Below, one piece after another: positions 8,055 through 60,917 of a DNA stretch of 64,000 nt. How positions within the stretch are numbered: position 1 is the stretch's first letter; the number at the start of each line of letters is the position of its first letter. The stretch covers positions 1,089 to 65,088 of the forward strand of contig CAVPHZ010000001.1 in assembly GCA_963704905.1 (NCBI GenBank), given 5' to 3'. Source of the DNA: Candidatus Chisholmbacteria bacterium (GTDB taxonomy: Bacteria; Patescibacteriota; Microgenomatia; UBA1400; Chisholmbacteraceae). The notes under the pieces were generated by a model, which saw only the letters and a program-made list of their open reading frames with translations, made no database searches and was not told the origin of the DNA. The position numbers and the translations under genes are program-made.

Positions 8055-8603
8055 TTATGACTTTAACTTTGTGGAATATTTTTCTTTTAAAGCTTTGAGT
8101 TTTGGCGAAATGACGAACGTGCAGTACGCAGCAGACGAATTATTAATATAGTAATTCTGGTGATACTCCTCCGCTTTAAAAAACTCTGTTAAGGGTACTA
8201 TTTGGGTGACAATTTTATCCTTATATTCTCCGCTCGCGCTCAACTCTTTTAGCAGCTTATTTGCAATATCTTTCTGCTCGTCATTAATATAGAGAATTAT
8301 TGATCGATATTGTGTTCCAGTATCAGATCCTTGCCTGTTTATAGTGGTGGGATCATGTGAATGCCAGAATATATCCAGAAGATCTCTGTAGGAGATCATT
8401 TGGGGATCAAATTCTATACGAACCGTCTCTGCATGTCCGGTGTCCGTATTGCTAACTTGATCATAGGTCGGATTGTTTACTGACCCACCAGCATAACCGG
8501 GAGTCACTGATATGACACCTTTTATCTGCTGGAAGATTGCTTCTGTGCACCAAAAACAGCCTCCTCCAAATACAGCAATTTGTTTATTTTTCATCCTTAC
8601 CAA
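8055..8603 (-). CDS. msrA: peptide methionine (S)-sulfoxide reductase MsrA
   Basis: Catalytic motif GGGCFWCTEAIF and GYAGG. Overlaps msrB by 20 nt. Confidence 0.9.
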   Translation of the reverse strand: MVRMKNKQIAVFGGGCFWCTEAIFQQIKGVISVTPGYAGGSVNNPTYDQVSNTDTGHAETVRIEFDPQMISYRDLLDIFWHSHDPTTINRQGSDTGTQYRSIILYINDEQKDIANKLLKELSASGEYKDKIVTQIVPLTEFFKAEEYHQNYYINNSSAAYCTFVISPKLKALKEKYSTKLKS

Positions 8604-8952
8604 TAAACTTCAGAGACATTGAATTGACGCAGTGACGAGTATTCTTGGGTGTATCACCTTCACCTTCAAAAACATGACCTAAGTGCGCACCGCATGAATT
8701 ACAGGTAATCTCAGTTCTGCGACCATCAGCATCTAGAGTTCGTTTTACTGCATCGTCTATTTCTTGATCAAAGCTAGGCCATCCGCAGTGTGCGTCAAAT
8801 TTATCTGAAGAATTATATAGTGGAGCATCACATTGCTTGCATACATAGACCCCATCCTCAAAAAATTCGTCGTACTTTCCCGTGAAGGGGGCTTCCGTGC
8901 CCTTGTCGATAATCACTCTTTTTTCTTCTTCAGTTAATTGATTTACTTTCAT
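8584..8952 (-). CDS. msrB: peptide methionine (R)-sulfoxide reductase MsrB
   Basis: SelR fold motifs CKQCDAPLY...HCGWPSF and CNSCGAHLGHVF (two CxxC zinc sites, catalytic Cys). Confidence 0.9.
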   Translation of the reverse strand: MKVNQLTEEEKRVIIDKGTEAPFTGKYDEFFEDGVYVCKQCDAPLYNSSDKFDAHCGWPSFDQEIDDAVKRTLDADGRRTEITCNSCGAHLGHVFEGEGDTPKNTRHCVNSMSLKFIGKDEK

Positions 8953-8954
8953 GT

Positions 8955-10682
8955 TTATCCAAATGTAAAAGCAAATAGTTCTAGATTGTTATCTTGGAAG
9001 ATTAGCTTGAGAGTATGTTTTCCAGGACTATCTAAACGGATGAGTTTGTAGAGCCTGTCCTTATCCACAGTTATAATTCCATCATCTACGTCTGCCCCCT
9101 TGTTGGTGGCGTCAACCGTCTGGCCATCAAGTGTTACTTCAATCCTACCGGCGCCGTTTTTCGACCTCATGACAAGAAATACTTCACTGGCTTCAAAATT
9201 TAAAATCAATGATCCACCTTGAGTTGGCTTTGCATATTCTTCTCCGATTTCCCAAGTGCTGGTATACGCAAAGCGATTGGGAAGTAAAGTATTGGGAGCT
9301 GAATATTCTTGTGGTGCGTTTTGGATGATGCGCTCTGGTGATTGAAAGTATTCGATTCTACCATAGCCCAAATAGAGCTCCGGTGTACGAGCTGTAATCG
9401 TATATTCAGGATTATCAATAGTTGTTTGGTTAACTTCAGTACCTGCTTCTTTGAGTAATGTTTGTATCACTTTTTCTGTTTCGTCGTAATCACCTTCACC
9501 ATAGTGGTGGTAACGAATATTCCCCTTCGCATCGATAAGATATTTTGCAGGCCAGTAATGATTGTCGTATGCTCGCCAAGTTGCGTAGTCATTATCCTGC
9601 ATGATTGGGTACGTTAACTCAAAGTCGTTGACGGCATCTTTTAGATTGTTAATGTCTTTTTCAAATTCAAACTCAGGTGTATGGACACCAATAATTACAA
9701 GTCCTTCATCACCATACTTTTCATTCCAACTCTTAAGGTAAGGTAGTGTTCGGATGCAATTAATGCAGGTGTAGGTCCAAAAGTCGATCAGGACAACTTT
9801 TCCCCGCAATTGCTCAAGTGTGAGCGGATCGCTATTTACCCATTCTCCACCAGGTATGAGATTTGGCGCAGTTCCTTCCTCTTCGAGCATTTCAAACATT
9901 GGTCTTCCCTTCTCTTCTGATTTTCCATTTGCATCTCCACGAAGACTTTGGAGTTCTTTTTGCACTGCTTGGTTTTCTTCCAACTTTGTCAGGCCTGTTC
10001 CATAGCTTGGGAAAGCATCTAGCACGAAGGTCTGAATTTTTCGATCGTAGTTAAAGTGTATGCCAATTGCTGTCAGGATCATCAGCATTCCAAAGGCTTT
10101 TTGAATTTTGCCAGTGTTGCTCACAAGCGTAGGTACTCGTGAGAGGAGTCCCTTTCCACCATAGAGAATTGCGAGCATCGGTAGTGCTGTGCCTACTGAA
10201 TACGCAAGCGTAATCATGAAGCTGGCTTGGGTAACCTCTCCGGTTAAAGCAAGTGAAATTACCGAGGCAAGAATTGGCCCAACACATGGGGTCCATATGA
10301 GACCAATACTTATACCGACAAGAAGACCGCCAAAAAAACCTTGGCCGCTTGTTGATGTTGGAACGATACCTGATAATTTTGAAAAGAGTTTTTCCATCTC
10401 GAGCTGAAATCGAGGTACGAGCAGGCTTACACCAAACAACCCCACAACGAGCACGGAGAGCACGCGTAAACTGTCAGCAGGTATACCAATTGCTTTCACA
10501 ATTGCAGTGAGAAATAAGGTGAAAAAGGTGAAGCTGATAATAAATCCCGTGACTACACCAAAAGGCCGTCTTTTACCACCTGAAACAGAACTCGATAACA
10601 CTATCGGGAGAATAGGTAAGATGCAAGGAGAAAGTATAGTTACAACTCCTGCCAAAAATGCAAAGCTAATGAGAACAATCAT
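8955..10682 (-). CDS. CcdA/DsbD-type thiol-disulfide transporter fused to a TlpA-like thioredoxin domain and a C-terminal beta-rich domain
   Basis: N-terminal 6-8 TM region with two Cys (LSPCILPIL, WTPCVGPIL) as in the DsbD / cytochrome c biogenesis family. Then WTYTCINC (CxxC) in a thioredoxin fold. A ~150-aa C-terminal domain is of unknown type. Confidence 0.8.
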   Translation of the reverse strand: MIVLISFAFLAGVVTILSPCILPILPIVLSSSVSGGKRRPFGVVTGFIISFTFFTLFLTAIVKAIGIPADSLRVLSVLVVGLFGVSLLVPRFQLEMEKLFSKLSGIVPTSTSGQGFFGGLLVGISIGLIWTPCVGPILASVISLALTGEVTQASFMITLAYSVGTALPMLAILYGGKGLLSRVPTLVSNTGKIQKAFGMLMILTAIGIHFNYDRKIQTFVLDAFPSYGTGLTKLEENQAVQKELQSLRGDANGKSEEKGRPMFEMLEEEGTAPNLIPGGEWVNSDPLTLEQLRGKVVLIDFWTYTCINCIRTLPYLKSWNEKYGDEGLVIIGVHTPEFEFEKDINNLKDAVNDFELTYPIMQDNDYATWRAYDNHYWPAKYLIDAKGNIRYHHYGEGDYDETEKVIQTLLKEAGTEVNQTTIDNPEYTITARTPELYLGYGRIEYFQSPERIIQNAPQEYSAPNTLLPNRFAYTSTWEIGEEYAKPTQGGSLILNFEASEVFLVMRSKNGAGRIEVTLDGQTVDATNKGADVDDGIITVDKDRLYKLIRLDSPGKHTLKLIFQDNNLELFAFTFG

Positions 10683-10694
10683 ACATCAAACTTT

Positions 10695-10985
10695 CTACCT
10701 ATCCCCCATCATGATGTCATTGTCATCCATCATTGTTTCACCTTCCGATGTCGCCTCTTTATCCTCCATCATTGCGTCATCGTCTTCCATCATTTTATCT
10801 TCATTATCCATCATTGCGTCATCGTCTTCCATCATTTTATCTTCATTCTCCATCATTTCTTCTGATGTTTCTCCAGTTGTTGTCGGAGCAAATGCAGATT
10901 GCTGAGATTGAAGTAATACATAACCAAAGACTAGCGCGATAATTCCAATGATTACTATTATTGTTGTCTTATTCATATATATCAC
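10695..10985 (-). CDS. membrane-anchored acidic Met-Met repeat protein
   Basis: One N-terminal TM helix, then MMENEDKMMEDDDAMMDNEDKMMEDDDAMMEDKEATSEGETMMDDNDIMMGD with nine Met-Met dipeptides. Encoded by a ~45-bp tandem repeat at 10761-10852. Lies 12 bp upstream of the CcdA-Trx gene on the same strand. Confidence 0.55.
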   Translation of the reverse strand: MIYMNKTTIIVIIGIIALVFGYVLLQSQQSAFAPTTTGETSEEMMENEDKMMEDDDAMMDNEDKMMEDDDAMMEDKEATSEGETMMDDNDIMMGDR

Positions 10986-13975: not shown

Positions 13976-14122
13976 ACATTTCATTCAAACAATATCTTGC
14001 TAGCTGGCAGGTTATATTATCAAGCTACTGTTCAATACAATTTACAGGCAAAAATTGCAAAGGCTTCTCTAATTATTTCCTGAAACACTCTTCATGAGGG
14101 GCTTAAGAAAGATCACCAATAC

Positions 14123-14635
14123 TTAGTATCCAAACTTCTCTTTATACTCGTTGCGAAGATTCTCAAGTCGTTGTTTTATTGCGTGAGGATTTTCAACCTT
14201 ATCGATCAATACTTCTGCCTGTCCTGTTCCAGCAGTGTTAATAATGATAGCTCCCGTATTAAATAACCATTTCTCGATTACATTATCTCTAACTTGGATA
14301 TCAGTGATTTTGTTGAAATCTACACTTGTAAGATTTCTCGATAACCAACCTTGGTGAATTAATACTCTTTTGTTAGTAAACGCATACCGAAATGCTTGAG
14401 ATAAATAAAATTTGAAGTAGAATAGCGTATACAATAGAAAGAATATACCAATAATTAAAATCGCTGTTAAGATGCCTAGACTCATACCTATGAGAAATCC
14501 TCTATGGAGATATTTTTCACCGGGACCAAAGTCGAGTTTAATTTCCTCTCCGCGAGTAAGAACTTTATTCCAATCAAAGTGTTGGGTTAACTTGCTTGGT
14601 ATAGCCATACTTGAATACTGATCGTATTGTAGCAA
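14123..14635 (-). CDS. bacterial PH-domain (bPH_2 / DUF304) membrane protein
   Basis: Two TM helices followed by KRVLIHQGWLSRNLTSVDFNKITDIQVRDNVIEKWLFNTGAIII, as in the YdbS/YdbT family. Confidence 0.65.
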   Translation of the reverse strand: MLQYDQYSSMAIPSKLTQHFDWNKVLTRGEEIKLDFGPGEKYLHRGFLIGMSLGILTAILIIGIFFLLYTLFYFKFYLSQAFRYAFTNKRVLIHQGWLSRNLTSVDFNKITDIQVRDNVIEKWLFNTGAIIINTAGTGQAEVLIDKVENPHAIKQRLENLRNEYKEKFGY

Positions 14636-14710
14636 ACTTTTCTAAAATGATGAGATGTATATATCCATGCAGTTGCGGTAATAGTCTCGAGTTGTTATGA
14701 TGTTTTACAC

Positions 14711-14926
14711 ATGTGTTTTGCTTTGCCGCTTCAAGTTACATCTGTAAAAAAAACTCAGGCTATAATGGAGGACGGTCGGCATGTTAACCTGGCTATGATT
14801 GGAAAAGTAACAAAAGGTGATTGGTTACTTGTAAAATCCAACTTAGCATTTGAAAAACTGAGTAAGAAAGACGCGATATCCATTCGTTCAGCTATCAAGG
14901 AGGTTTCTGATGAACTCAAAATTTAA
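14711..14926 (+). CDS. hypC: [NiFe]-hydrogenase assembly chaperone HypC/HupF family
   Basis: N-terminal MCFALP (HypC signature MC-x-x-x-P with Cys2) and GDWLLVKSNLAFEKL matching HypC's GQWVLVHVGFAM region. 71 aa. Confidence 0.7.
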   Translation: MCFALPLQVTSVKKTQAIMEDGRHVNLAMIGKVTKGDWLLVKSNLAFEKLSKKDAISIRSAIKEVSDELKI

Positions 14927-15836
14927 ACACGGCATCTATCTGGCGCTCGGAACGGCACTGTTTTCAGGTGTTGCTAATTTTGCAAATAAGTTTGCTTTAC
15001 AATCAGTTAGTGATCCACTTGTTCACACAACTGCAAAAAATATTTTGGTTGGGTTACTCGTCATTTCATTGCTATTGGCTTCTAAAAAACTATCTTCTCT
15101 CCGTAATTTAGATCGGAAGCAATTGCTTATGTTATTGGCAATTGGGGTTGTCGGTGGGAGTTTACCTTTCTATTTATTTTTCACAGCTCTTTCACAAATT
15201 CCTGCCATCAATGCTGCCTTAATACATAAAACACTTATCTTTTGGGTTGCCTTGTTAGCACTACCTTTATTGGGGGAAAAAATTTCTATAAAACAGATAG
15301 GTGCATTAGGGCTTATTTTTTCTGCTAATCTTGTGGTTGGAGGATTTAAGGGATTTCAACTTTCTCTACCGGAATTGATGGTCTTAATGGCAACCATCCT
15401 TTGGTCAGTCGAAAATATTATTGGCAAGATCGTACTTCGTACTGTTGATCCTGATATTGTTGTTGCAGCGAGAATGGGAATTGGTTCAATGATTCTTCTT
15501 GGAGCGGTTTTATTATCAGGTAAAACACCCATACTCACCTCACTTTCTATTCATCAGTTGAGTTTAGTTGGGCTGACTTCCCTATTACTATTTGGATACG
15601 TAAGTACATGGTATCGAGCCTTAAAGCATGCTCCGGTTACACTGGTTGCCACGGTTCTTACTCTTGCAACACTTATTACCAATGGGCTTTCTGCGGTTTT
15701 TATCACACGGTCCTTGACGTTTGAGCAATTTTCCCAATTCATACTCATTACTGCTGGTGTTTGGTTTTTTATCGTCACTTCTGGAAAGCTCAAACCCTCA
15801 ACTGAACTCAACCTCTCGACAGCGGTCAAGGTTTAG
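14910..15836 (+). CDS. EamA/DMT-family 10-TM transporter
   Basis: Two EamA-like 5-TM halves. Overlaps the hypC stop. Confidence 0.7.
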   Translation: MNSKFKHGIYLALGTALFSGVANFANKFALQSVSDPLVHTTAKNILVGLLVISLLLASKKLSSLRNLDRKQLLMLLAIGVVGGSLPFYLFFTALSQIPAINAALIHKTLIFWVALLALPLLGEKISIKQIGALGLIFSANLVVGGFKGFQLSLPELMVLMATILWSVENIIGKIVLRTVDPDIVVAARMGIGSMILLGAVLLSGKTPILTSLSIHQLSLVGLTSLLLFGYVSTWYRALKHAPVTLVATVLTLATLITNGLSAVFITRSLTFEQFSQFILITAGVWFFIVTSGKLKPSTELNLSTAVKV

Positions 15837-15838
15837 TC

Positions 15839-16579
15839 ATGGATGGTGTACTTACTTGCGCGCGCTATGCGTTTGCCCCAAACTACTACAAATACTGTGG
15901 ACCAGATGCTAATCGTGGGATTGCTGCGTATCTTAAAGAGGGGGTGTCAGATTCAGGTCTTTCAAGTTACCTTTCAGAATTTGCCGTTCTCTACCCGTAT
16001 TTAAAGCTCATTGCGCATGAAAATGGGTATTCAGATCCTTTTGATCCAAAAGTTGTTGAGGCATATTGGGTTGGAAATCAACTGCTTGAAAAAGTTGGCA
16101 TGGACTCATTTAGCGATCATCTGCTCTATGGTCAGCGATTAAAACATCGAATTCCAAAGAAATCGTTAAAATGGATCATTGATAAAGTTCCAAAGGGAGC
16201 GAAGATTCATCATAGTTTTCATGTTTTTTCTATATTCACCAGGACAGGTCATCACACTGTTGAACATACACTAGATACTATGGATCAATGCAGGATCGGC
16301 TGGGGCAGAATTGTTAAGTCAATAAGAAAAGATCAAACGTTGAACATACGCGTTAAGAGTCAAAAATTGATTTATGAACATGGAAAGATACTATTTAATG
16401 ATGGTGTCTTTAGAGATGTCACTCTCCCAGTTGATAACGATTTTAAATCGTCGCTGAAAATTGGTGATTGGGTATCTTTTCATTGGGGATATGTGTGTGA
16501 CAAAATCACCAAATCTCAGGCATATCGACTTGCCTTTTATACGAAGCATAACTTAGTATTAGCGAATGGAACAATTTAA
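15839..16579 (+). CDS. conserved hypothetical protein with Cys-rich N-terminus inside the hydrogenase locus
   Basis: MDGVLTCARYAFAPNYYKYCGPD... has no family I can name. Translationally coupled with the flanking genes. Confidence 0.45.
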   Translation: MDGVLTCARYAFAPNYYKYCGPDANRGIAAYLKEGVSDSGLSSYLSEFAVLYPYLKLIAHENGYSDPFDPKVVEAYWVGNQLLEKVGMDSFSDHLLYGQRLKHRIPKKSLKWIIDKVPKGAKIHHSFHVFSIFTRTGHHTVEHTLDTMDQCRIGWGRIVKSIRKDQTLNIRVKSQKLIYEHGKILFNDGVFRDVTLPVDNDFKSSLKIGDWVSFHWGYVCDKITKSQAYRLAFYTKHNLVLANGTI

Positions 16580-16591
16580 GATACTATAGTA

Positions 16592-17143
16592 ATGAATAAA
16601 GCGTTACGACTCCTCCTGATAACTGATAGTTTCATCCTCATTTCATCAGCTATGTTCGGTCCTATTTATGCAATCTTTGTACAAGAGATTGGCGGTGGGA
16701 TTTTAGAGGCGAGTTGGGCAGTTGCAGTATTTTCATTTATTACTGGTATTTCACTATATTTTTTCGCACGGTTTGAAGATCAGATGAAAGAACAGGAGCT
16801 CGCGCTAGTATTCGGATACTTCGTTTTGGCAATTGGGTATTTTGGTTATCTATTCGTTCACTCACTTCCCTCTCTTCTTCTTATGCAAGCAATTCTAGGT
16901 ATTGGAAAGGCAGTCTATACTCCTGCATATGATGGGTTGTATTCGATTCATCTTGATAGGAAGAAGGCTGCATCTCAATGGGGAGCTTGGGAGATGATGG
17001 CATATATCATTTCGGGTATTGGTGCTGTTGTTGGTGGACTACTTGCAAATGCATTCGGATTTAGTATTCTTTTTGTCATCATGGGAATGCTATGTGTGTT
17101 TGGAGCTTTTGTAATCTGGCTGCAACCGAGAAAGGTATTATGA
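16592..17143 (+). CDS. 6-TM membrane protein (MFS half-transporter-like)
   Basis: 183 aa, six predicted TM helices. Stop overlaps the protease start (ATGA). Confidence 0.45.
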   Translation: MNKALRLLLITDSFILISSAMFGPIYAIFVQEIGGGILEASWAVAVFSFITGISLYFFARFEDQMKEQELALVFGYFVLAIGYFGYLFVHSLPSLLLMQAILGIGKAVYTPAYDGLYSIHLDRKKAASQWGAWEMMAYIISGIGAVVGGLLANAFGFSILFVIMGMLCVFGAFVIWLQPRKVL

Positions 17144-17580
17144 ATCAGAATTATCCTAAACCACTTGAGATCAAACGCATTAAATTAGACCCGTCGAAAA
17201 AGCGGGTATCAGTATTTGGGAATTCGCTCGTGGATAAAGATTCAATTTCGATTCGAATTCTCCCTGAATTACGAAAACGATTTCCGCACATAGAGTTCTT
17301 GGTAGAGGATCCGACAGAAACACTCAATCCACCGGATGACGAATGGTGGATTATTGACGCTGCTGAAGGAGTGAAACGAGTTGAGCTGATAGAAGATCTT
17401 ACGAAAATAGAGCCGACACAAAGTACCAGTGTTCATGATTATGATCTTTCTTTCGACTTATTTCTTCTGCAAAAACTTGGTAAACTTCCAAAAATGAAGA
17501 TAGTGATTGTGCCGTTTGAGTTTACTGTGAAAAAAGCTGTGAAAGAAGTTACAAGAATCCTCAAAGCCAGCGGATTTTAA
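17140..17580 (+). CDS. [NiFe]-hydrogenase maturation endopeptidase (HycI/HyaD-like)
   Basis: VFGNSLVDKDSISIRILPEL..IIDAAEG..VHDYDL parallels the HycI motifs VGNSMMGDDGAG / IVDA / HNMPL. Start set at the internal ATG at 17140 overlapping the upstream stop. The track ORF begins at 17092. Confidence 0.55.
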   Translation: MNQNYPKPLEIKRIKLDPSKKRVSVFGNSLVDKDSISIRILPELRKRFPHIEFLVEDPTETLNPPDDEWWIIDAAEGVKRVELIEDLTKIEPTQSTSVHDYDLSFDLFLLQKLGKLPKMKIVIVPFEFTVKKAVKEVTRILKASGF

Positions 17581-18850
17581 GGAAGTGAGTCGCACAGCTG
17601 ATACAAGGGTCGTAGGCTCGGATGAATTTTTCTATTTCGAATGAAATCTGATCTTTTTCCTCATCTATGTTTCCTTCAACAACTCCTATGAGATTTTTTT
17701 CAATGCTGATTTGATTTTGTCCTGTTGGAACAATAATGTCAGCGTGAGTCACCTTGCGATCTTTAATATCATACTTGTGATACAGCAATCCACGTGGAGC
17801 TTCGATTACTCCTATTCCAACGCCTTCTGTTTGTTGTGCTGTGATTAAATGCTCTTTGGGATAATCGGATTGTTTGTCGAGAATATCAAGACTTTCATCA
17901 ATGCAATGTAGAACTTCAATTGCTTGTGCTAGATTGTTGTGAAATATATTTGTTGATGGAAATTGTTCTAAAGCTGTTGCAGCATCTTGCTTGGCGCTTG
18001 GATGAAGAAGATCTTTATTCAAGTTCATTCTTGGTAGCGCTCCAACCATGAACCTGTTTCCCTGAAATTTATATCCCGATGCTTGTGAATATGGAATAAC
18101 TGTGTGGTCGAGATACTCGCGGATATTTTCCTCTTCTATCTTCTGACCTTTACTTGAAGTAACTTTCCCTTCCAAAAAATCGTAGTCGTTTCCCTTCAGT
18201 GCAACAAATGTCGTATCGTCCAGATATTCAAATGGGCATCTATAAAATACTTCAATTAAACGGAGTGCAGCAGGACGAGCTTCTTTGAGCATTCCAATAG
18301 ATTTTTCAATTTCGGCTTTTTCAGGATACTTAGAAAAACCTCCAACCATTGGGTATGGAGCATGGACGCTCCTGCCTCCAAAGGTAATTGATAGTTGGTT
18401 ACCCGCAGCTTTTATTATAAATGTATCGTGAAGGAGCTGATGTTCTTTTTCATCGTTTTCATCAAATTCCAATATCGAATCTTTTCCTAATACATCTGGA
18501 AGTGAAAAAACATAGAGGTGAAGACCGTGATCTCGTATGTTTAAGCCATTGTTTACTAGTCTGCGCATGCGTTTTGTTTGGTTTGATGGAATAATTCCAA
18601 CTCCTTTTTCCACCGCTTCAATACTGCAAAGCAGATGGGCGTTGGAGCAGGTTCCACAGATCCGAGCGACAAGTTGCGGTACTCCCATGACATCTTTACC
18701 TCGAATCGCTTGTGTGTAGAAACGCTTGAAATCGGTGAGTTGAAAATGAAGCTCTTCAACTTTTCCATTTCGAACCTTCACGTCCATGCCTGCATTGCCC
18801 TCAATCTTGCTGATTTCTTCTACTGATAGGTCAAAATTTGACTGATGCAT
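17561..18850 (-). CDS. [NiFe]-hydrogenase large subunit (group 3-like, cytoplasmic)
   Basis: L1 motif RICGTCSNAH near the N-terminus and L2 motif DPCISCATH 7 residues from the C-terminus. 429 aa, similar in size to group 3 alpha subunits. Confidence 0.85.
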   Translation of the reverse strand: MHQSNFDLSVEEISKIEGNAGMDVKVRNGKVEELHFQLTDFKRFYTQAIRGKDVMGVPQLVARICGTCSNAHLLCSIEAVEKGVGIIPSNQTKRMRRLVNNGLNIRDHGLHLYVFSLPDVLGKDSILEFDENDEKEHQLLHDTFIIKAAGNQLSITFGGRSVHAPYPMVGGFSKYPEKAEIEKSIGMLKEARPAALRLIEVFYRCPFEYLDDTTFVALKGNDYDFLEGKVTSSKGQKIEEENIREYLDHTVIPYSQASGYKFQGNRFMVGALPRMNLNKDLLHPSAKQDAATALEQFPSTNIFHNNLAQAIEVLHCIDESLDILDKQSDYPKEHLITAQQTEGVGIGVIEAPRGLLYHKYDIKDRKVTHADIIVPTGQNQISIEKNLIGVVEGNIDEEKDQISFEIEKFIRAYDPCISCATHFLKIRWL

Positions 18851-18875
18851 ACCTATGGATTCTAAATCTTAGCCG

Positions 18876-19409
18876 TTAACCGTTTGGCGATTGATCTGTT
18901 TGCTTTTCTCCTTCTTGAGATGGTGTAGTAATATTAAACTTCTCTAGTGCTTGAGCTAATACTGCCATGAACGTATCTGTATCCATAGGACAACCTGGTA
19001 CTATTGCATCAACTTGTACGACTTCGTTAAGTTTCATAACTTTTTCTGCATAGTTAAACTTCTCAAGAATGTGTTGTATCTCTGCTTTGGTTGTATCATC
19101 AAATAAATTTCTCTGAGCTGATGGGAATCCAGTTACTGCGCATGAGCCAATTGCGACTAGCATTTTCGAGACGCCTCTGATTTGTCGTAGTTTTTCAGCT
19201 TGAGATTCGCTTGAAATAGCCCCCTCGACAAAGGCAACGTCAAGTTCGTCAAGTACATTTTTTGTTTGCAATACTTTAGCGTGTCGGATATCGAGAATCT
19301 TTTTCCACTCGAAGAAGTGCTCGTTGAGCAGTTCGGTCATCATAATAGTTGAATCTTCACAGCAGGTGAAGCTAAACCAACCAATACGGAGTTTTTTTTG
19401 CTGTTCCAT
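18876..19409 (-). CDS. [NiFe]-hydrogenase small subunit, minimal form (NuoB / oxidored_q6-like, proximal-cluster domain only)
   Basis: Cys ligands in GWFSFTCCEDS, GSCAVTG and VPGCP. Only 177 aa and lacks medial/distal cluster motifs. Directly upstream of the large subunit on the same strand. Confidence 0.7.
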   Translation of the reverse strand: MEQQKKLRIGWFSFTCCEDSTIMMTELLNEHFFEWKKILDIRHAKVLQTKNVLDELDVAFVEGAISSESQAEKLRQIRGVSKMLVAIGSCAVTGFPSAQRNLFDDTTKAEIQHILEKFNYAEKVMKLNEVVQVDAIVPGCPMDTDTFMAVLAQALEKFNITTPSQEGEKQTDQSPNG

Positions 19410-19410
19410 G

Positions 19411-19629
19411 CTATTTCTTTTTTAAAAATGGGAATTTATACTTCACGATACCCAGGAGATAAAATATCTCAAGTACACCAAACGTTTGAATCAGAAGGAG
19501 GGCGATAAACCATTTCTTGTCATCTCGGTTTGCTGACACCCACAGTGCTAAACCTTTCCAAGGAACTGACCATAGCTGGAGAATGAGGATGAGCCAAGGA
19601 TTTTGATTAATGAGTTGTTGAATGTTCAT
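19411..19629 (-). CDS. small 2-TM membrane protein
   Basis: 72-aa hydrophobic ORF, 2 nt upstream of the small subunit gene. Confidence 0.3.
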   Translation of the reverse strand: MNIQQLINQNPWLILILQLWSVPWKGLALWVSANRDDKKWFIALLLIQTFGVLEIFYLLGIVKYKFPFLKKK

Positions 19630-19683
19630 TTCTCTTTCTACAATTGTGTAGAATTTTATATAACTCGATTGTAAAATTGAGTG

Positions 19684-20250
19684 CTATCCACGACTATATT
19701 TACCTACCAAACTTGTCTGAGCAATAATATGTCCTTCCATCGCTGCTTCGAGCGTCGCTTTTGTTGTTCCTGAAGAAAGCTCTAGTATCGTGTCAAGGGC
19801 GTAGAGTTTGAAGAAATAACGATGCTCCTGACCGGATGGAGGACAAGGCCCACCATAGGAGTTATTACCAAAATCATTCAGACCTTGTATTGAGCTTGGT
19901 GGAGGGCTTCCCTCCGGGATTTGATCGAACTGTGGTGGAATATCAAATATAATCCAATGAACCCAGGTTTTTACTGGTGCGTCAGGATCATCGATAATTA
20001 ATGCCAAACTCTTTGTTTCTTCTGGTATTCCTGAAAAGCTTAAGGATGGATTGATATTTTCTCCATCGCAGGTATATTTTCTTGGAATACTTTCATTGTC
20101 ATTAAATACTGTGCTTGAAATGTGTAATGGGTTCATAATTTTCTCAACCTGATTAGTACTCGGTTTTATCTGGCTATTGATATGAAGGCTATTGCAGCCT
20201 GATAGAAGCATAGCAAAAACGAAGAAAGTTGATAAGTGCCTCCGATTCAT
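19684..20250 (-). CDS. YbhB/YbcL (PEBP / Raf-kinase-inhibitor-like) family lipoprotein
   Basis: Lipobox LLSGC, then YTCDGENINPSLSFSGIPEETKSLALIIDDPDAP and HRYFFKLYALD, which are PEBP-family signatures. Confidence 0.85.
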   Translation of the reverse strand: MNRRHLSTFFVFAMLLSGCNSLHINSQIKPSTNQVEKIMNPLHISSTVFNDNESIPRKYTCDGENINPSLSFSGIPEETKSLALIIDDPDAPVKTWVHWIIFDIPPQFDQIPEGSPPPSSIQGLNDFGNNSYGGPCPPSGQEHRYFFKLYALDTILELSSGTTKATLEAAMEGHIIAQTSLVGKYSRG

Positions 20251-20517
20251 CTAATTTTTTCTTTTTCCAAGATCCTTACTTGATAAGGTCATTGCAAGCA
20301 TCTTACCCAGCTCTAGAGAAAATTTCTGTGCCTGATTTTTACTCATCCCTATTCGGGCTACAATTCGAATATTTCCGGTGTTCCCTAGGCGTTGCATGAC
20401 ATCAAATACCACCCCATCTTGATTTGCTGTGATACCAATGTTATCTGTGTACAGTATTGGCGTTTTATCTAGGTTAATATTAACTCGAGTGTTTGAAGAT
20501 TCCTTTTGTTCTGCCAA
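20251..20517 (-). CDS. DUF3467-like small protein
   Basis: 88 aa. Pattern ILYTDNIGITANQDGVVFDV...RIVARIGMS fits DUF3467. Weak call. Confidence 0.4.
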   Translation of the reverse strand: MAEQKESSNTRVNINLDKTPILYTDNIGITANQDGVVFDVMQRLGNTGNIRIVARIGMSKNQAQKFSLELGKMLAMTLSSKDLGKRKN

Positions 20518-20541
20518 GCTTACTCACTTCCTTTCTTATTT

Positions 20542-20787
20542 TTATTTTACGTTAAGCTTCTCAGTGAGTTCGTTATTTGAGGGTTCAACAAAGATATCAC
20601 CATCAGGAAAAATAATAGTTGGGATGGATTTCAACCCATTATTTATTTTTATAACAAATTCATAAGCACCTGGTTCGGAGTCAACATCATGATATTCATA
20701 GTCAACTTGATGCTTATCTAACAGACTCTTAGAACGAACGCAATCTCCACACCAAGCTGCGCCGTAGAATTGAATCTTTTTGTTCAT
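20542..20787 (-). CDS. glutaredoxin-like protein (NrdH/YruB type)
   Basis: KIQFYGAAWCGDCVRSK has a CxxC active site in a thioredoxin fold. 81 aa. Confidence 0.7.
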   Translation of the reverse strand: MNKKIQFYGAAWCGDCVRSKSLLDKHQVDYEYHDVDSEPGAYEFVIKINNGLKSIPTIIFPDGDIFVEPSNNELTEKLNVK

Positions 20788-20798
20788 GCAGATCCATT

Positions 20799-21404
20799 TT
20801 ACCTTGCTGTGTCGAGTCTTTTCTGAACCTCATTCCAATTTACAACATTCCACCATGCTTCGATATACTCCGCACGACGATTCTGGTATTTGAGATAATA
20901 GGCATGCTCCCATACGTCTATCCCTAGCAGAGGAGTATTTCCTTTCATGATAGGTGTATCTTGATTTGGAGTCGAGCAGACATGCAGCTCTCCCTGTTCT
21001 AGCGTTAACCATGCCCAACCACTTCCAAATCGAGTTAAAGCAGAATTTGTGAACTCTTTCTTGAAATTTTCAAAACTCCCAAAACTTGCTATGATCTCGT
21101 CTGAGAGTGAACCCTCAGGCTTGCCACCCGCTTTTGCGGATAAGCTTAACCAAAACAGTGAGTGATTTGCATGCCCCCCGCCGTTATTCTGAACTGCAGT
21201 TCGTATCTCTTCTGGAAGTTGGGAAAGATTTGATAAGATTGTATTAATATCTTGGTTTGCTAGATCTTCTCTCCCTTCCAGTGCAGTGTTTAGTTTGCTG
21301 ACGTACCCCGCATGATGTTTGCTGTGATGAATAGTCATCGTTTGCTCATCGATGTGAGGTTCTAACGCTTTATATGCGTAAGGTAATTCTGGTAATGTAT
21401 ACAT
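20799..21404 (-). CDS. sodA: Fe/Mn superoxide dismutase
   Basis: [30 protein letters not shown] and [18 protein letters not shown] metal-ligand motifs. Start placed at the ATG 7 nt after a strong SD AAAGGAGGTG (revcomp of 21411-21420). The track start at 21464 is likely too long. Confidence 0.9.
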
Positions 21405-21556
21405 TTCTTTCACCTCCTTTCGGTGATTCTGATATTTACCGTTTAGTATAGATTGTTGTGACACGAGATGCTGTGACTTTTGTTACAAGATTACTTTTCA
21501 ACTCTTCAACTTTTCAATCTCCAGTGGTTATCTCTTTGTCGTGTTAGAATGAACTC

Positions 21557-24271: not shown

Positions 24272-25085
24272 TCAGCGCTTAATGAATGCCAATAGTTTGG
24301 AAAGTTTGCTGTGCTCTTTAAGCGAGTTTATTAACACGACATATACTGCCCACATCATGACACCCGAGAAGACAAATTGACTGTCTTTTCCATAGATCTG
24401 AAACATTTCTCCACCAACGGCAGGGCCGACGATCCTGCCAATACTTCCCGATGATTGTAATAAACCCAAAACACCTCCATATTCCTCTGGTGACACAGTT
24501 TCTGAAGCAAGTGCTTGAATAGTTGGATTTTGAAATACCGTTTCCAAATGCGATAAACAAGATAGAAACATACGCCATCTTCGCTACAGTACTAAAATGA
24601 AGCAGAAACAATCCTACTCCTAATAACAACACACCGCCTTGCAGCAGCTTTCGCTCACCAAAGTGGCTCACTAGTTTTGGTAGTAATGCGAGTTGGGTTA
24701 TAACGCTGATTACTCCAGCAAAAGAGAATAGCCAGCCTGTTTCTCTTGGCCCGTATTGGAATGTTCCTTGCGTCCATAATGCAAAGGTTGCCGTCATTGC
24801 AGAGAATGCAAAGTTGATAAGTAGAAATGAGATTATGAGTACACCGATAGGTTGTGCCCGAAGCACTTCCATGAGAGGCTTGAGAGAAAAGGCAGACTTT
24901 TCTTGTTGAGCTGTTTTCGCTATATCCACAGTTTCTTTCAAGAAAAATAATGTGGTTATTACAGAGAGCATTGAGACAGCTGCCGCAAAAAAGGCTGGAG
25001 TAGAATAACTTATGGTTGAAAGCAGATCACCAATCGCTGGTCCGAGAATAAAACCGATGCCAAAAGCGGCTCCGATAAGTCCCAT
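24272..25085 (-). pseudogene. MFS transporter, N-terminally truncated and frameshifted
   Basis: ORF 24318-25085 starts at the MFS TM5 motif GLIGAAFGIGFILGPAIGD, so about 140 aa of the N-terminus is absent. Its last ~85 aa are off-frame. The true C-terminus continues in another frame (ORF 24272-24571, ...GVMMWAVYVVLI), implying a frameshift near 24540-24570. Confidence 0.55.
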
Positions 25086-33815: not shown

Positions 33816-35468
33816 TTATTTCTTCAGTGGAAGTGTAAATGAAAAGGTCGATCCTTTACCCTCTTGAGATTCAACCCAGATTTTTCCCCCATGTGCCTCG
33901 ATGATACCTTTGGCAACCACCAATCCTAGTCCTGTCCCCTCTGCAGTTCGTGGTTTATTGGTGGTGAGCTGAGCAAATTTGGAAAACAATCTGCTTTGCT
34001 CTTCGGATTTCATGCCATTACCTGTGTCTTTTATTGAGATGGTGGCTTCGTTCTCATTTTTAGAAAGTTTTATTGTGATACTTCCCTTTTCTGTAAATTT
34101 AATTGCATTACTTAATAAATTCGTTAACACTTGACCAATACGAGATGGATCAAAGATTCCTTTTACCTTCTCTGCTTCAATTTCTGTTGTTATTTTGAGA
34201 TTCTTCTCCTCTGTAAGTGGTGTAAATTCGCTGACTTTAAGTTCGATGAGTTTCACGATGTCAGCCTCAGTTTTGTCTATCTGCATTTTTTCTGCTTCAA
34301 TTTTTGCAACATCGAGTAAGTCATTCACAATGGCGAGCATGTTCTCGCTGCTATTTTTTATCATGGTGAGGTATTCATTTTTCTTTTCTTCTGGAAAACC
34401 TTCCTTATGTGACATAATTGCGCTGCTTGCACCTTTGACTGCGGTCAGAGGAGCGCGAAGCTCATGAACCATCATTGCTATAAAATCCTCACGAAGACGT
34501 TCAAGTTCTTTTTCTTTTGATATGTCATGAAAAACCATTACCACACCGATGAGTTTCTCTCGCTTATCGCTCACTGGTGAAATGAGGACCCGTACTGCAG
34601 TGTCGCTGAGTACGAGTTCCTCGATAATTTTCGACTCTTGGGATTTCAGTACTTCATCGACTTCTCTAGGAACATTTAATTTTCCTCCAAGGACATCGAC
34701 CAAGTCATAGAGCGTTGGATCTTCATCTTTAATGCCGAGCAAATATATGGCAGCGGGATTAATCAACTGGAGCTCTGATTCACGATCGATCATAATCACA
34801 CCGTCCGGCATAGAGTGAAGCATGGACGACATTTTGCCTTGCTCTATTTCTAAAACGTGTCTGAGTTTTGAAACTGCGGTTGACGCCTGATTGACGATAC
34901 GATAAAGAATTGTGGTTTCTCCCACTTGATACTTCCCTGGAATTTTTGAAGCGATATTCATGAGTCCTGCCAGTTTGTCATTGATTACAACTGGAATGTT
35001 GAAGTACGATCCGATTTCTTGTTCAACTTGGTCATCGACAAAGGTTCCGGTGGTGATTTCTTCGATAGGATTTTGTCGAACTTGATACCCTAATGCTTCG
35101 ACAGAGGCAAACATGCTTTCTCTCATCGTGTCAATGAATTTTTGATTCACGGATTCTTTCAGATGGATTTTTAAAACACTTTTATCTTTATTGAGAAGGA
35201 TTGAACTTACAGTTGAATATGAGAAAAGTCTCCCTATTGAACTGGTGATGACGTCAATTATTTTCTCCTCATTTAATTCATAGCCAAATCTCTCTCCGAG
35301 TTCTCGCAGTATTTCTGCTTCATATGCCTCTTTTTTGAGTTCACCTTCACGAGCACGTAATTTTTGTTTTGCGATTTTTTCTTTTTGTATTGACTGTGAA
35401 ATGAGAAAACCACCTCCAGCGAGGATGAGCGGAAAAAGTATTGCGGCGAGGAGAATGGGCAGTTCCAT
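33816..35468 (-). CDS. sensor histidine kinase (TM anchor, sensory region, HisKA, HATPase)
   Basis: H-box [13 protein letters not shown]-box [10 protein letters not shown]-boxes DTGNGM and [18 protein letters not shown]. Confidence 0.9.
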
Positions 35469-59776: not shown

Positions 59777-60017
59777 TAAATGCTTAGTGAAAGTAAAAAA
59801 TATTAGCTCTCCCTCCCAGGACGAACTCAAGATATGGAACCTTTTTTAAAGTGAATTCGTATATTGATTTTCTTCTGGCTTCTTCGTAATATGTCTCTAA
59901 GAAGTTGTGTTTAAGGAATCTGGTGAAATTCCAGAACTGTGCCGCAACTGTAATCCGACTTAAAGCTCGGTAAGTCAGAAAACTAACAACTTCTAGTATC
60001 CCGAGCAGGAGAAATTC

Positions 60018-60917
60018 ATGTCGAAAGAACTTCATCAATTCACGCAAGCTGTACTAGAATTTCCCCCTCCGCAACGCTTTGAAGAACTCGCATCTGAAAT
60101 TCATGAGACTAATCGCCTTCCCGATCCATATCTATTTGTGTTTGACGAGCAGACAAATCAGTTTATTACGCCAGCTGGAGAGTCTGTAGTTGATAACATT
60201 GTTACTGATTCGTACTTAGGTGCAGTTGAATATTCAGCATGGCAACGAATACAAGACTGGTCAAGTAACAATGCGTCTGGATTGGCGCTTTGGTTCAGCC
60301 CACCATTTGAAAGGGAAGGTTACGAAAATTCAAAATTTATTATTCATGAACTTTCGCTTCTGGAAACTGGAGAAAAAATTATTTTCAACAGAGCAGTTAT
60401 TTTGGACATCGAAGCTCAAGAGCTTCTCGATTTGGCAAATGCTCTGTCTTCAAAAAAAATCATGAATCCTGAAATGCTCCGTTCCCAACCGTTATTTCCA
60501 AATCTGCAAGATTTTCAACACTGGTTTGCAAATGAACTATCAGGAATTACTTATCAGACTGGGATTATAGAATCTGGGCGAGATCTACTTTTAAAACGGG
60601 AGGCTTATGCCTCAGCTCAGGATATTTATTCTTCAATTGCTATAGTTGGAGAAGATCTCTTTTCATCTCAAATGTACGCTGCTGCTGTTCGTGAAGCTGA
60701 AGATCGAGAACTTATTGGTGAACATTCAAGGAGCTGTCCACCTGGTCAGTCAAAACAATCTACAGCGTTTGAAAAAGCTCTGGAATACTCTTCGAATAGT
60801 AATGAGAAAAGGCTAAATTGTACTTGTCCATTCTGTAAAAAGAAGGTTACAGCTACCATTTTAAATAATAAAATTCACTGTCCAGAATGTAAGAAGAGTG
60901 TTCCTTATGAATGTTGA
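60018..60917 (+). CDS. hypothetical protein with a C-terminal zinc ribbon
   Basis: 299 aa. The C-terminus CTCPFCKKKVTATILNNKIHCPECKK has two CxxC pairs. The rest matches no family I can name. Confidence 0.45.
   Translation: MSKELHQFTQAVLEFPPPQRFEELASEIHETNRLPDPYLFVFDEQTNQFITPAGESVVDNIVTDSYLGAVEYSAWQRIQDWSSNNASGLALWFSPPFEREGYENSKFIIHELSLLETGEKIIFNRAVILDIEAQELLDLANALSSKKIMNPEMLRSQPLFPNLQDFQHWFANELSGITYQTGIIESGRDLLLKREAYASAQDIYSSIAIVGEDLFSSQMYAAAVREAEDRELIGEHSRSCPPGQSKQSTAFEKALEYSSNSNEKRLNCTCPFCKKKVTATILNNKIHCPECKKSVPYEC

Follow-up and report, generated by a model that had tools for sequence, protein, structure and literature searches.

Jaffe et al. (2020) (BMC Biol 18:69; PMC7304191) described a "hyd2" hydrogenase clade whose small subunits are truncated to a mean of 164 aa, whose loci lack beta and gamma subunits, and whose function is uncertain; they found beta and gamma subunits only alongside the sister clade hyd1. 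The locus analysed here, in a 64-kb stretch of DNA (the window) from the 773-kb genome of a Microgenomates, Chisholmbacteria-like CPR bacterium, is a member of this CPR/DPANN clade of group 3b-related hydrogenases, and the enzyme type singled out in a first-pass annotation of the window had thus already been described in CPR bacteria (PMC7304191). It shares with hyd2 the CPR host, a 3b-related large subunit on its own branch, and a nearby hypC; its small subunit has 177 aa against the published mean of 164, and with no essential difference it is one further member. Some hyd2 loci in that study, like some of our related loci, have PF07992 flavoproteins and FeS proteins as neighbours. A term search of that paper found in its account of hyd2 neither the near-universal convergent endopeptidase gene, nor the DUF6390 and EamA pair and fusion, nor the HypC without its histidine described below, and DUF6390 was named in no paper of the literature searched by term.

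SH1, according to the same paper (PMC7304191), is a heterotetramer with beta and gamma subunits. SH1 and SH2 (Pyrococcus/Thermococcus HydABGD; PDB 9nez, 9e15, 5yxy) have the same L1 and L2 motifs and very short C-terminal tail as the window's enzyme, and the N-terminal 148 residues of SH1 delta (261 aa) align with the window's small subunit, in which the cluster motif reads C-C-E-D rather than C-Y-G-C. The C-terminal domain of SH1 delta holds further FeS clusters, and SH1 also has its beta and gamma (FAD/NADPH) subunits; that domain and both subunits are missing in the window. HoxY, of the group 3d NAD-reducing hydrogenase (5xf9_C, 189 aa), and HydS, of the electron-bifurcating NiFe-HydABCSL (7t2r_E, 179 aa), are small subunits of about 180-190 aa, both solved docked on FeS/flavin modules. 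These hold the proximal cluster only and pass electrons straight to the module, but their operons always include NuoE/F/G-like diaphorase subunits, unlike the window, and their large subunits are much more distant from the window's (110-140 bits, against 236). NuoB/PSST of complex I has the Oxidored_q6 fold in common with the window's small subunit, as well as a tandem Cys-Cys in the cluster-binding motif, which reads SCC in E. coli NuoB and TCC in the window; however, the partner of NuoB, within a membrane complex, is NuoD, from which the NiFe site has been lost, whereas the partner in the window is a fully liganded [NiFe] subunit with no membrane module.

Gene content of the locus

The ORF list reproduced all gene coordinates and motifs of the first-pass annotation (Table 1). 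The accessory genes are shown to form a convergent operon encoding HypC, a divergent HycI-type endopeptidase, an EamA permease and DUF6390; the 3' ends of the endopeptidase and large-subunit genes overlap by 20 bp. Pfam agrees with the earlier hypC and EamA transporter calls, HypC scoring 44.8 bits against a cut-off of 28.5. Searches for hyp genes and partners covered the 64-kb window: E. coli HypA, B, D, E and F queries had no match there, in keeping with the reported absence of hypABDEF, and the claim that no diaphorase, beta/gamma or membrane module is present was likewise borne out within it. Beyond the genes for glutaredoxin and superoxide dismutase (SOD), MsrA, MsrB and a DsbD-AhpC/TSA-thioredoxin-like fusion are encoded about 5-10 kb from the hydrogenase, and genes for AhpC-TSA and SOD likewise lie near the hydrogenase of the closest relative (L001).

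Table 1. Features of the hydrogenase locus and its surroundings in the window.
Feature	Position	Strand	Evidence or remark
HypC-family chaperone, 71 aa, begins MCFALP	14711-14926	+	Pfam HupF_HypC 1.4e-11
EamA/DMT-family permease, 308 aa	14910-15836	+	Pfam EamA 3e-30
DUF6390 protein, 246 aa	15839-16579	+	Pfam DUF6390 1.6e-53
Half-size (6-TM) MFS protein, 183 aa	16592-17143	+	Pfam MFS_1 1.8e-18
Divergent HycI/HybD family endopeptidase, 146 aa	17140-17580	+	Neighbourhood, invariant residues, profile matches
[NiFe]-hydrogenase large (catalytic) subunit, 429 aa	17561-18850	-	Pfam NiFeSe_Hases 4.7e-30
Truncated small subunit, 177 aa, single (proximal) FeS site	18876-19409	-	Pfam Oxidored_q6 3e-19
DUF5652 small membrane protein, 72 aa	19411-19629	-	Pfam 6.8e-19
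Glutaredoxin	20542-20787		Adjacent to hydrogenase
Fe/Mn-SOD	20799-21464		Adjacent to hydrogenase
PAS histidine kinase	33816-35468		~15 kb from hydrogenase

Catalytic and small subunits

The large subunit carries L1 as RICGTCSNAH (residues 63-72; R63-C65-G-T-C68...H72) and L2 as DPCISCATH (residues 414-422; D414-P-C416..C419..H422), the latter followed by a 7-aa tail, FLKIRWL. An alignment of 14 sequences shows no variation at its metal ligands, E17 or R353, and both motifs are found in all 84 related loci, where the tail starts FL(K/E/T) in every case. Group 3b models rank first in NCBIfam (alpha HydA 247 bits, ShyA 238, next type 136), the 247 bits falling below the equivalog cut-off, 880. 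Among solved structures P. furiosus SH1 alpha is nearest (E 7e-69, residues 7-425 aligned), and homologues of 54-76% identity occur in Chisholmbacteria, Microgenomates, Roizmanbacteria, WWE3 and Aenigmarchaeota. At the level of sequence, the catalytic subunit is shown to be a group 3b relative with every residue required for H2 chemistry in place, in line with the group-3-like subunit and canonical L1 and L2 first proposed.

In the small subunit, with motifs TCCEDS, GSCAVTG and VPGCP, the conserved cysteines are C16, C17, C90 and C140, exactly four being kept across 77 homologues. Of the 240 aa in the NCBIfam ShyD delta model, only positions 1-146 are matched, and on P. furiosus SH1 delta the match spans residues 3-148; the protein therefore lacks the C-terminal domain of medial and distal clusters. 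Every one of the best 120 homologues is 141-197 aa long, and truncation recurs in 73 of 81 related loci (family median ORF length 168 aa). A motif census found C-C, not C-x-x-C, in ~95% of family members, and in one alignment with the window's subunit the corresponding residues are SCC in E. coli NuoB and CNGC in E. coli HycG, upholding the earlier description of a proximal-cluster subunit with a NuoB-like C-C. The subunit is shown to be a flavodoxin-like domain holding one FeS cluster, with non-canonical ligation in which C-C-E-D replaces C-x-x-C. Because intermediate motifs such as TCCEGC occur in more distant relatives, we suggest that the C-C motif arose within hydrogenases.

These analyses confirm a real and intact nickel-iron hydrogenase consisting of just a catalytic subunit and a shortened small subunit with one cluster. 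This stripped-down heterodimer is the conserved state of a large clade, neither an oddity of one genome nor a local loss.

The maturation cassette

The endopeptidase gene adjoins the large-subunit gene in 78 of the 84 related loci. Its longest ORF (17092-17580, plus strand) encodes 162 aa, and the Met at 17140 gives 146 aa, as in the public gene call. Residues G27, N28, D34, D73, H99, D100 and D102 are invariant. Pfam HycI matches 25 of 40 family members and three NCBIfam protease models match 26, 24 and 16; hydrogenase-protease models are the sole recurring profile match, consistent with the HycI-like protease first annotated, yet their scores fall short of the curated thresholds. Searched by profile, PDB sequences yielded no protease, hhalign against E. 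coli HycI gave only 1.7% probability, and a single-sequence AF2 model had a pLDDT of 42.5, too low for use. SH1 alpha has been deposited in two lengths, 428 aa, and 424 aa with His as its last residue, and a very short cleaved tail is therefore normal in group 3b; the window's endopeptidase would cut off the 7-residue tail behind His422.

HypC has the canonical N-terminal M-C-x-x-x-P and lacks the conserved His (LLVKSNLAF, against VLVHVGFA in E. coli, in an alignment with E. coli HypC and 20 related-locus homologues); this His-less HypC accompanies the heterodimer in the window's subclade. DUF6390 and EamA accompany it as a pair in 66 of 84 loci and are fused in some (in L017 by Pfam; in L036 as judged from a 563-aa ORF). 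DUF6390 (AF2 model, pLDDT 93.5) has an all-helical, Cys/His-rich N-terminal domain (C7, C20, H124, H125, H128, C151), followed by an OB fold resembling that of HypC (H215, C220) and by a helix at the C-terminus. Its PDB matches, HypC included, cover the OB domain only; a HypC-like motif in it can be aligned with E. coli HypC, the His matching HypC His51, and the protein shows no similarity to HypD. DUF6390 is probably a maturation factor, and the EamA permease is a conserved member of the accessory cassette; the predicted role of both would be in cofactor or metal supply, not electron transfer.

Could DUF6390, alone or tethered to EamA, instead be the redox partner or membrane anchor, with its four conserved cysteines binding an FeS cluster? 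C7, C20 and C151 never vary and C220 hardly does, conserved His residues accompany them, and the tight linkage to the hydrogenase and the fusions would fit. However, the gene lies in the hypC/endopeptidase operon, apart from the structural genes, the C-terminal OB fold and its His are HypC-like, the cassette HypC has lost the His that DUF6390 carries, loci adjoining canonical hypCDEF are without DUF6390, and EamA is not known to carry a redox cofactor; we consider such a role unlikely.

The electron partner

With medial and distal clusters absent, the single cluster would have to pass electrons directly to a docking partner. Candidate partners are encoded at other loci: a Pyr_redox_2 protein with Rubredoxin_C/Reductase_C in 27, a Fer4_15 ferredoxin in 22, and either in 29 of 84. 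The flavoprotein gene ends at most 8 nt from the small-subunit start in 10 loci, in 9 of which a ferredoxin gene directly precedes it, and ferredoxin and flavoprotein in places form one operon with the hydrogenase. Pyr_redox_2 is fused to the small subunit in L005 and P0244, and a NuoF-like module in P0249, a parallel within hyd2 to HoxY and HydS. Alpha and beta subunits of 2-oxoacid:ferredoxin oxidoreductase (OFOR) are encoded within 7 kb in 12 of 84 loci, most also with an ADP-forming acetyl-CoA synthetase (ACS). HMMs of these families (ferredoxin, FNR-like flavoprotein, OFOR, ACS) had no match in the 64-kb window, a motif scan found no ferredoxin- or rubredoxin-like ORF there, and no locus of the window's 20-locus subclade has a ferredoxin, flavoprotein or OFOR within 10 kb; partner genes occur in 24 of 40 fully flanked loci outside the subclade against 0 of 20 inside, counts that ignore shared ancestry. 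It is thus from other subclades that the partner proposed here is extrapolated.

Given the cis partners and the OFOR and ACS neighbours in those lineages, the most likely function would be electron exchange between H2 and soluble ferredoxin, and, by way of a flavoprotein, with NAD(P)H; for a fermenting host its main use would be the release of surplus reductant as H2. The cis partner in other lineages would be a single-cluster ferredoxin with a ferredoxin/rubredoxin-reductase-type flavoprotein, or else the flavoprotein part of a small-subunit fusion; in this genome we suggest that it is encoded outside the window. We conclude that the locus probably encodes a hyd2-type cytosolic [NiFe]-hydrogenase exchanging electrons with a soluble ferredoxin/flavoprotein encoded elsewhere. 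The first-pass annotation had offered a stripped-down enzyme or partner subunits elsewhere: the former stands, conserved in the clade, and of the latter a soluble partner is likely, whereas canonical beta and gamma subunits are unlikely, the domain that relays electrons to them being absent from the small subunit.

An ordinary group 3b heterotetramer, with the genes for beta (FeS) and gamma (FAD/NAD(P)) at another place in the genome, would agree with SH1/SH2 alpha being nearest to the large subunit and with an FAD_binding_6/NAD_binding_1 protein encoded 1.5 kb upstream in one related locus (L091). We regard it as quite improbable, since the C-terminal domain of the small subunit is wholly missing, this truncation extends through the best 120 homologues and most related loci, no beta/gamma-like family recurs among the 84 loci, and beta and gamma were found only with hyd1 by Jaffe et al. 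(PMC7304191). The glutaredoxin, SOD and more distant stress genes, and the similar setting of L001, might instead suggest that H2-derived electrons feed thiol oxidative-stress defence (glutaredoxin/peroxiredoxin/Msr) rather than ferredoxin or NAD(P); but such neighbours are confined to the window and L001 with no recurrence across the 84 loci, are not found in L003 or L006 of the same subclade, and in no examined locus is a thiol reductase fused to or operonic with the hydrogenase, making this very unlikely. Least probable of all is an H2 sensor or decaying, non-catalytic relic, to which the minimal architecture, absent cis partner, reduced host genome (gene decay being common in such genomes) and PAS histidine kinase could point, as relatives from at least 570 species-level genomes keep all catalytic residues, a dedicated maturation cassette with its endopeptidase is co-conserved, a signalling gene is adjacent in none of the loci, and known H2 sensors (group 2b) differ in keeping three-cluster small subunits and having no cleaved tail.

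Two further genes are lineage-specific, being shared by the window and its closest relative (L001/L002) alone. The half-size MFS gene is inserted into the cassette and probably does not belong to the system; the DUF5652 gene, directly upstream of the small-subunit gene, is possibly co-transcribed with it.

The hydrogenase locus and its very likely membership in hyd2

The first-pass annotation described a compact [NiFe]-hydrogenase locus with a minimal two-subunit enzyme and no electron-transfer partner subunits. That finding is real and was correctly read, and its genes and coordinates agree exactly with our ORF list (see table). The large subunit carries L1 (RICGTCSNAH, residues 63-72) and L2 (DPCISCATH, residues 414-422) as annotated, followed by a seven-residue tail, FLKIRWL, and all four cysteines of the [NiFe]-ligand consensus (RxCGxCxxxH and DPCxxCxxH) are present. 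These cysteines are not substituted: the metal ligands, together with E17 (KIEGN) and R353 (EAPRG), are invariant in an alignment of 14 diverse large subunits, and the motifs occur in 84/84 related loci. The N-terminal Glu of the xEG motif serves in proton transfer, and both this Glu and the EAPRG Arg have catalytic roles.

Features of the hydrogenase locus and its surroundings, in window positions
Feature	Position	Strand	Source or remark
hypC	14711-14926	+	ORF list
EamA permease	14910-15836	+	ORF list
DUF6390 protein, 246 aa	15839-16579	+	ORF list; Pfam 1.6e-53
6-TM protein, half of an MFS transporter	16592-17143	+	ORF list; Pfam
162-aa ORF, endopeptidase candidate	17092-17580	+	ORF list
Large subunit, 429 aa	17561-18850	-	ORF list
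Small subunit, 177 aa	18876-19409	-	ORF list
3'-end overlap, large subunit and 162-aa ORF	17561-17580		20 bp
Oxidative-stress/repair genes, one flank	8055-10682	-	
Oxidative-stress/repair genes, other flank	20542-21464	-	
96-aa Met-rich ORF	10695-10985	-	
MFS transporter gene in two ORFs	24272-25085	-	255 aa and 99 aa, overlapping
Cobalamin riboswitch	59888-60005	+	43 bits, above gathering score
299-aa ORF	60018-60917	+	No Pfam family

The large subunit appears to be related to group 3b. Its best NCBIfam models are the group-3b alpha subunits HydA (247 bits) and ShyA (238 bits), with the next type at 136 bits, all read with the caveat that the HydA and ShyA scores lie far under their equivalog cut-offs of 880 and 700. 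Its top PDB match, end to end, is the alpha subunit of the Pyrococcus furiosus group 3b sulfhydrogenase SH1 (E 7e-69). Group 3b enzymes normally have a short tail that is cleaved off: SH1 alpha has one deposition of 428 aa and another of 424 aa with His as the last residue. Among the hyd2-type relatives, the tail begins FL(K/E/T) in 84/84 non-redundant loci. In contrast to the HydABGD/ShyABCD operons of group 3b, the window contains no gene for a beta (FeS, AsrA-like) or gamma (FAD/NAD(P), AsrB-like) subunit, as had been noted, and no beta/gamma-like family recurs among the 84 related loci.

Homologues of the large subunit number in the thousands, and the best 120, which are 54-76% identical, come from Chisholmbacteria, Microgenomates, Roizmanbacteria, WWE3, other Patescibacteria and Aenigmarchaeota. 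A protein identical to the window's large subunit is encoded on a 772,908-bp contig. When one genome per species was scanned, at least 570 genomes proved to encode a relative, and 80 loci were fetched. For the neighbourhood survey, ORFs were called in 84 non-redundant loci, HMMs were built from the window proteins, and neighbours within 7 kb were clustered.

The available text of Jaffe et al. (2020; PMC7304191) divides the group-3b-related hydrogenases of CPR bacteria into hyd1, which has beta and gamma subunits, and hyd2, a long branch with a consistently truncated small subunit (mean 164 aa) and no co-located beta or gamma subunits, with hypC nearby and some PF07992 flavoproteins and FeS proteins close to a subset of loci; of hyd2 its authors say that "its function remains uncertain." The window agrees with that text in every respect tested, having a truncated small subunit, no co-located beta or gamma subunit, a CPR host and hypC nearby. 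Because its homologues in Roizmanbacteria and other CPR bacteria are 54-76% identical, the window hydrogenase is very likely a member of hyd2. For this window the result is mainly a re-identification of a published clade, and the enzyme is a new member of a known but uncharacterised type.

The small subunit and its probable electron partner

The small subunit has the motifs first reported for it (TCCEDS, GSCAVTG and VPGCP), which provide the four ligands of a proximal cluster, with C-C-E-D in place of C-x-x-C in the first motif. The likeness to NuoB holds up: in a single alignment E. coli NuoB has SCC at this position and E. coli HycG has CNGC. Whereas group 3b delta subunits are about 240-260 aa long and carry medial and distal clusters, the 177-aa protein matches only positions 1-146 of 240 in the ShyD delta model and aligns only with residues 3-148 of SH1 delta, and its 120 best homologues are 141-197 aa throughout. 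Across 77 homologues C16 is conserved in 100%, C17 in 96%, and C90 and C140 within the range 96-100%; no conserved cysteines were found beyond these four, and E18 and D19 are conserved in about 100%.

A motif census found (S/T)CCED(S/N) in nearly all hyd2 members and the canonical xxCEGC in more distant relatives, with intermediates such as TCCEGC, a series suggesting that gain of the extra cysteine preceded loss of the canonical second one. In rare TCSEDS variants C17 is lost while C16 and D19 are kept, leaving two candidate modes of ligation, one with tandem cysteines and one with three cysteines and Asp (D19).

No ferredoxin, flavoprotein, OFOR or rubredoxin was found within the window. Across the clade, a protein of about 415 aa with Pyr_redox_2 and Rubredoxin_C/Reductase_C domains occurs in 27/84 loci, a Fer4_15/Fer4_13 ferredoxin of about 89 aa in 22/84, and at least one ferredoxin or Pyr_redox_2 flavoprotein in 29/84. 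In 9-10 loci the genes run ferredoxin, flavoprotein, small subunit, large subunit, and the gap between flavoprotein and small subunit is -3 to 8 nt, indicating a ferredoxin/flavoprotein/hydrogenase operon. In DPANN archaea the Pyr_redox_2 flavoprotein is fused to the small subunit, as in an Aenigmarchaeota locus (L005:2994-4487 (+), 497 aa) and in another representative (P0244, 500 aa). A NuoF-like FMN/4Fe-4S module is fused to the small subunit in a 702-aa protein (P0249), and the small and large subunits are themselves fused in a 566-aa protein (P0375). OFOR alpha/beta genes lie within 7 kb in 12/84 loci, most of which also have ADP-forming acetyl-CoA synthetase, and the solved single-cluster small subunits HoxY (5xf9_C) and HydS of NiFe-HydABCSL (7t2r_E) show that direct docking of this kind of subunit on FeS/flavin modules is feasible. 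Together these neighbours, fusions, OFOR/acetyl-CoA synthetase loci and structural precedents make it probable that the partner is a ferredoxin or flavoprotein in soluble form and that the enzyme helps to balance redox in fermentation.

In this respect the subclade to which the window belongs differs from the rest of the clade. Partner genes are present in cis in 0/20 of its loci, and in 0/13 of those with full flanks, versus 24/40 elsewhere (Fisher p ~8e-5, with loci treated as independent despite shared ancestry). Because its subclade has no partner genes in cis, we infer that the partner of the window hydrogenase is encoded in trans.

The accessory cassette and its proposed role in cofactor maturation

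The survey recovered the small subunit in 81/84 loci, a homologue of the 162-aa ORF in 78/84, a DUF6390/EamA cluster in 66/84 and HypC in at least 20/84. HypC is mostly confined to the window's subclade, and the 162-aa ORF homologue nearly always abuts the large subunit in convergent orientation. That DUF6390 and EamA share a cluster reflects their fusion in L017 (11726-13405 (-); EamA at residues 8-140 and DUF6390 at 316-558, by Pfam); a 563-aa ORF in L036 (11642-13333 (-)) is, from its length, probably a similar fusion. Both are Parcubacteria/Kerfeldbacteria loci, and the fusion-type proteins are about 560 aa long. Such fusion argues that the EamA permease and DUF6390 physically cooperate. 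Among the 84 loci, the half-MFS, DUF5652 and PBP genes are confined to the window and the relative closest to it, and we treat them as lineage-specific. A 426-aa protein without a Pfam match beside EamA-DUF6390 in locus L093 was considered as a relative of the large subunit and rejected as unrelated.

As first annotated, hypABDEF are absent from the window: E. coli HypA/B/D/E/F queries match nothing there, and hypC alone is present. The window's HypC-family protein (Pfam 44.8 bits, cut-off 28.5) has the Met-Cys-x-x-x-Pro motif at its N-terminus (MCFALP), with Lys in place of the conserved His51 (LLVKSNLAF versus VLVHVGFA in E. coli). The N-terminal Cys is retained and the conserved His missing in 17/17 HypCs compared from this type of cassette (L001, L003, L006, L007 and others), while the His is kept in 3/3 HypCs from Moranbacteria-type loci without DUF6390. 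One of these three, L069, has canonical hypDEF alongside. With E. coli queries, HypDEF adjoin hyd2 in L022 and L069 and HypAB adjoin the cassette in L054; canonical Hyp proteins therefore exist in some hyd2 hosts, and because of the HypAB in L054, DUF6390 is unlikely to be just a substitute for HypAB.

A second HypC-like family of about 148-190 aa, with an N-terminal extension bearing Cys and His, is found in 9 loci. It lies directly after the large subunit on the same strand in L021, L058, L070, L073 and L077, with no EamA gene near it in these five, and L005:1479-2000 is another site.

DUF6390 has invariant C7, C20, H125, H128, C151 and H215 and near-invariant H124 and C220 across 50 homologues. 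Its AF2 model (pLDDT 93.5) is all-helical over residues 1-152, followed by an OB fold (154-223) and a terminal helix. In Foldseek searches of the PDB only the OB fold found matches, Thermococcus kodakarensis HypC included (target TM-score 0.59-0.68). By hhalign, the DUF6390 motif GDWVSFHWGYVC aligns with GQWVLVHVGFAM of E. coli HypC, placing H215 on the HypC His. DUF6390 as a HypD analogue was rejected (hhalign probability 0.1%, no similarity). We infer that DUF6390 acts jointly with the EamA permease in maturation or cofactor supply. Our literature searches found no paper mentioning DUF6390 and nothing relevant on maturation genes in Patescibacteria/Parcubacteria, and no mention of the DUF6390/EamA/His-less HypC cassette was found in the available text of the hyd2 paper (PMC7304191).

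The 162-aa ORF, called in public annotation as 146 aa from a start Met at 17140, had been read as a HycI-like protease. It falls below threshold with both Pfam HycI (14.1 bits, cut-off 23) and TIGR00072 (11.8 bits, cut-off 47.45). Scanned singly, 25/40 family members match Pfam HycI (best E 3.8e-5), and 26, 24 and 16 of the 40 match three NCBIfam hydrogenase-protease models (best E 2.8e-6), all under the curated cut-offs; no non-protease family recurs among the 40 in Pfam and NCBIfam scans. The family has invariant G27-N28...D34, D73 and H99 (G-N...D, D, H-D-x-D), which may correspond to the acidic/Asp/His metal-binding triad of these proteases with its GN motif ahead of the first ligand. Its profile found no protease among PDB sequences, the best hits being chance matches (E 0.17), and hhalign against E. 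coli HycI gave 1.7% probability, a weak match that puts H99 on the His of TTHNMPL (His90). The single-sequence AF2 model of the 146-aa protein was unusable (pLDDT 42.5). With moderate confidence we take the ORF to be a divergent hydrogenase maturation endopeptidase (HycI/HybD/HoxW). In about half of the related loci, as in the window, the large-subunit and endopeptidase ORFs meet or overlap (distance 0). A promoter and terminator scan of 14000-20600 was uninformative, giving fewer sites than shuffled sequence.

A fuller reading, possible but on balance doubtful, is that hyd2 enzymes are self-sufficient, ferredoxin-dependent minimal [NiFe]-hydrogenases with a single cluster of non-canonical ligation (tandem Cys or Cys3 plus Asp) and a non-canonical maturation, in which a His-less HypC, DUF6390 (a new Cys/His-rich helical domain with a HypC-like OB fold bearing the missing His) and EamA would replace or supplement part of the Hyp machinery. 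On this reading the permease might, for instance, bring in a metal or the precursor of a ligand which such reduced genomes are unable to make. DUF6390 could instead be the redox partner, which is possible, although both its operon context and its HypC-like domain speak against it. Only lineage-specific neighbours (glutaredoxin, superoxide dismutase, MsrAB and the DsbD-peroxiredoxin-like fusion) hint at a tie to thiol-based stress defence. A canonical tetramer with beta and gamma encoded elsewhere in the genome is unlikely, since small subunits across the whole clade lack the relay domain. A sensor or relic is contradicted by the conservation of catalytic and maturation genes.

Much of microbial diversity belongs to the CPR/Patescibacteria and DPANN archaea, and we know of no hyd2-type member that has been characterised biochemically. 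If the heterodimer does use soluble ferredoxin, it would be among the simplest known [NiFe]-hydrogenase architectures and, being compact, would lend itself to heterologous expression. What is still of interest is the function of this very widespread minimal hydrogenase, for which the verdict in the available published text is still uncertainty despite its presence in at least 570 species-level genomes, together with the co-conserved DUF6390/EamA/His-less HypC cassette, which suggests that [NiFe] cofactor assembly has a variation not yet described.

Flanking genes

The oxidative-stress and repair genes on either side of the hydrogenase encode MsrA, MsrB, a 575-aa fusion of DsbD_TM, AhpC/TSA and Thioredoxin_10, glutaredoxin and an Fe/Mn superoxide dismutase; a similar set is found in the closest relative, L001, and not in other hyd2 loci. 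Adjoining the DsbD-like gene, the 96-aa ORF has an N-terminal TM segment followed by acidic Met-rich repeats (e.g. MMENEDKMMEDDDAMM), and its product might bind metal. The MFS transporter gene appears divided in a manner that suggests a frameshift or pseudogene. Directly downstream of the cobalamin riboswitch, the 299-aa ORF has a zinc-ribbon-like CPFC...CPEC motif and, judged from the riboswitch, is a putative B12-regulated gene of this reduced genome.
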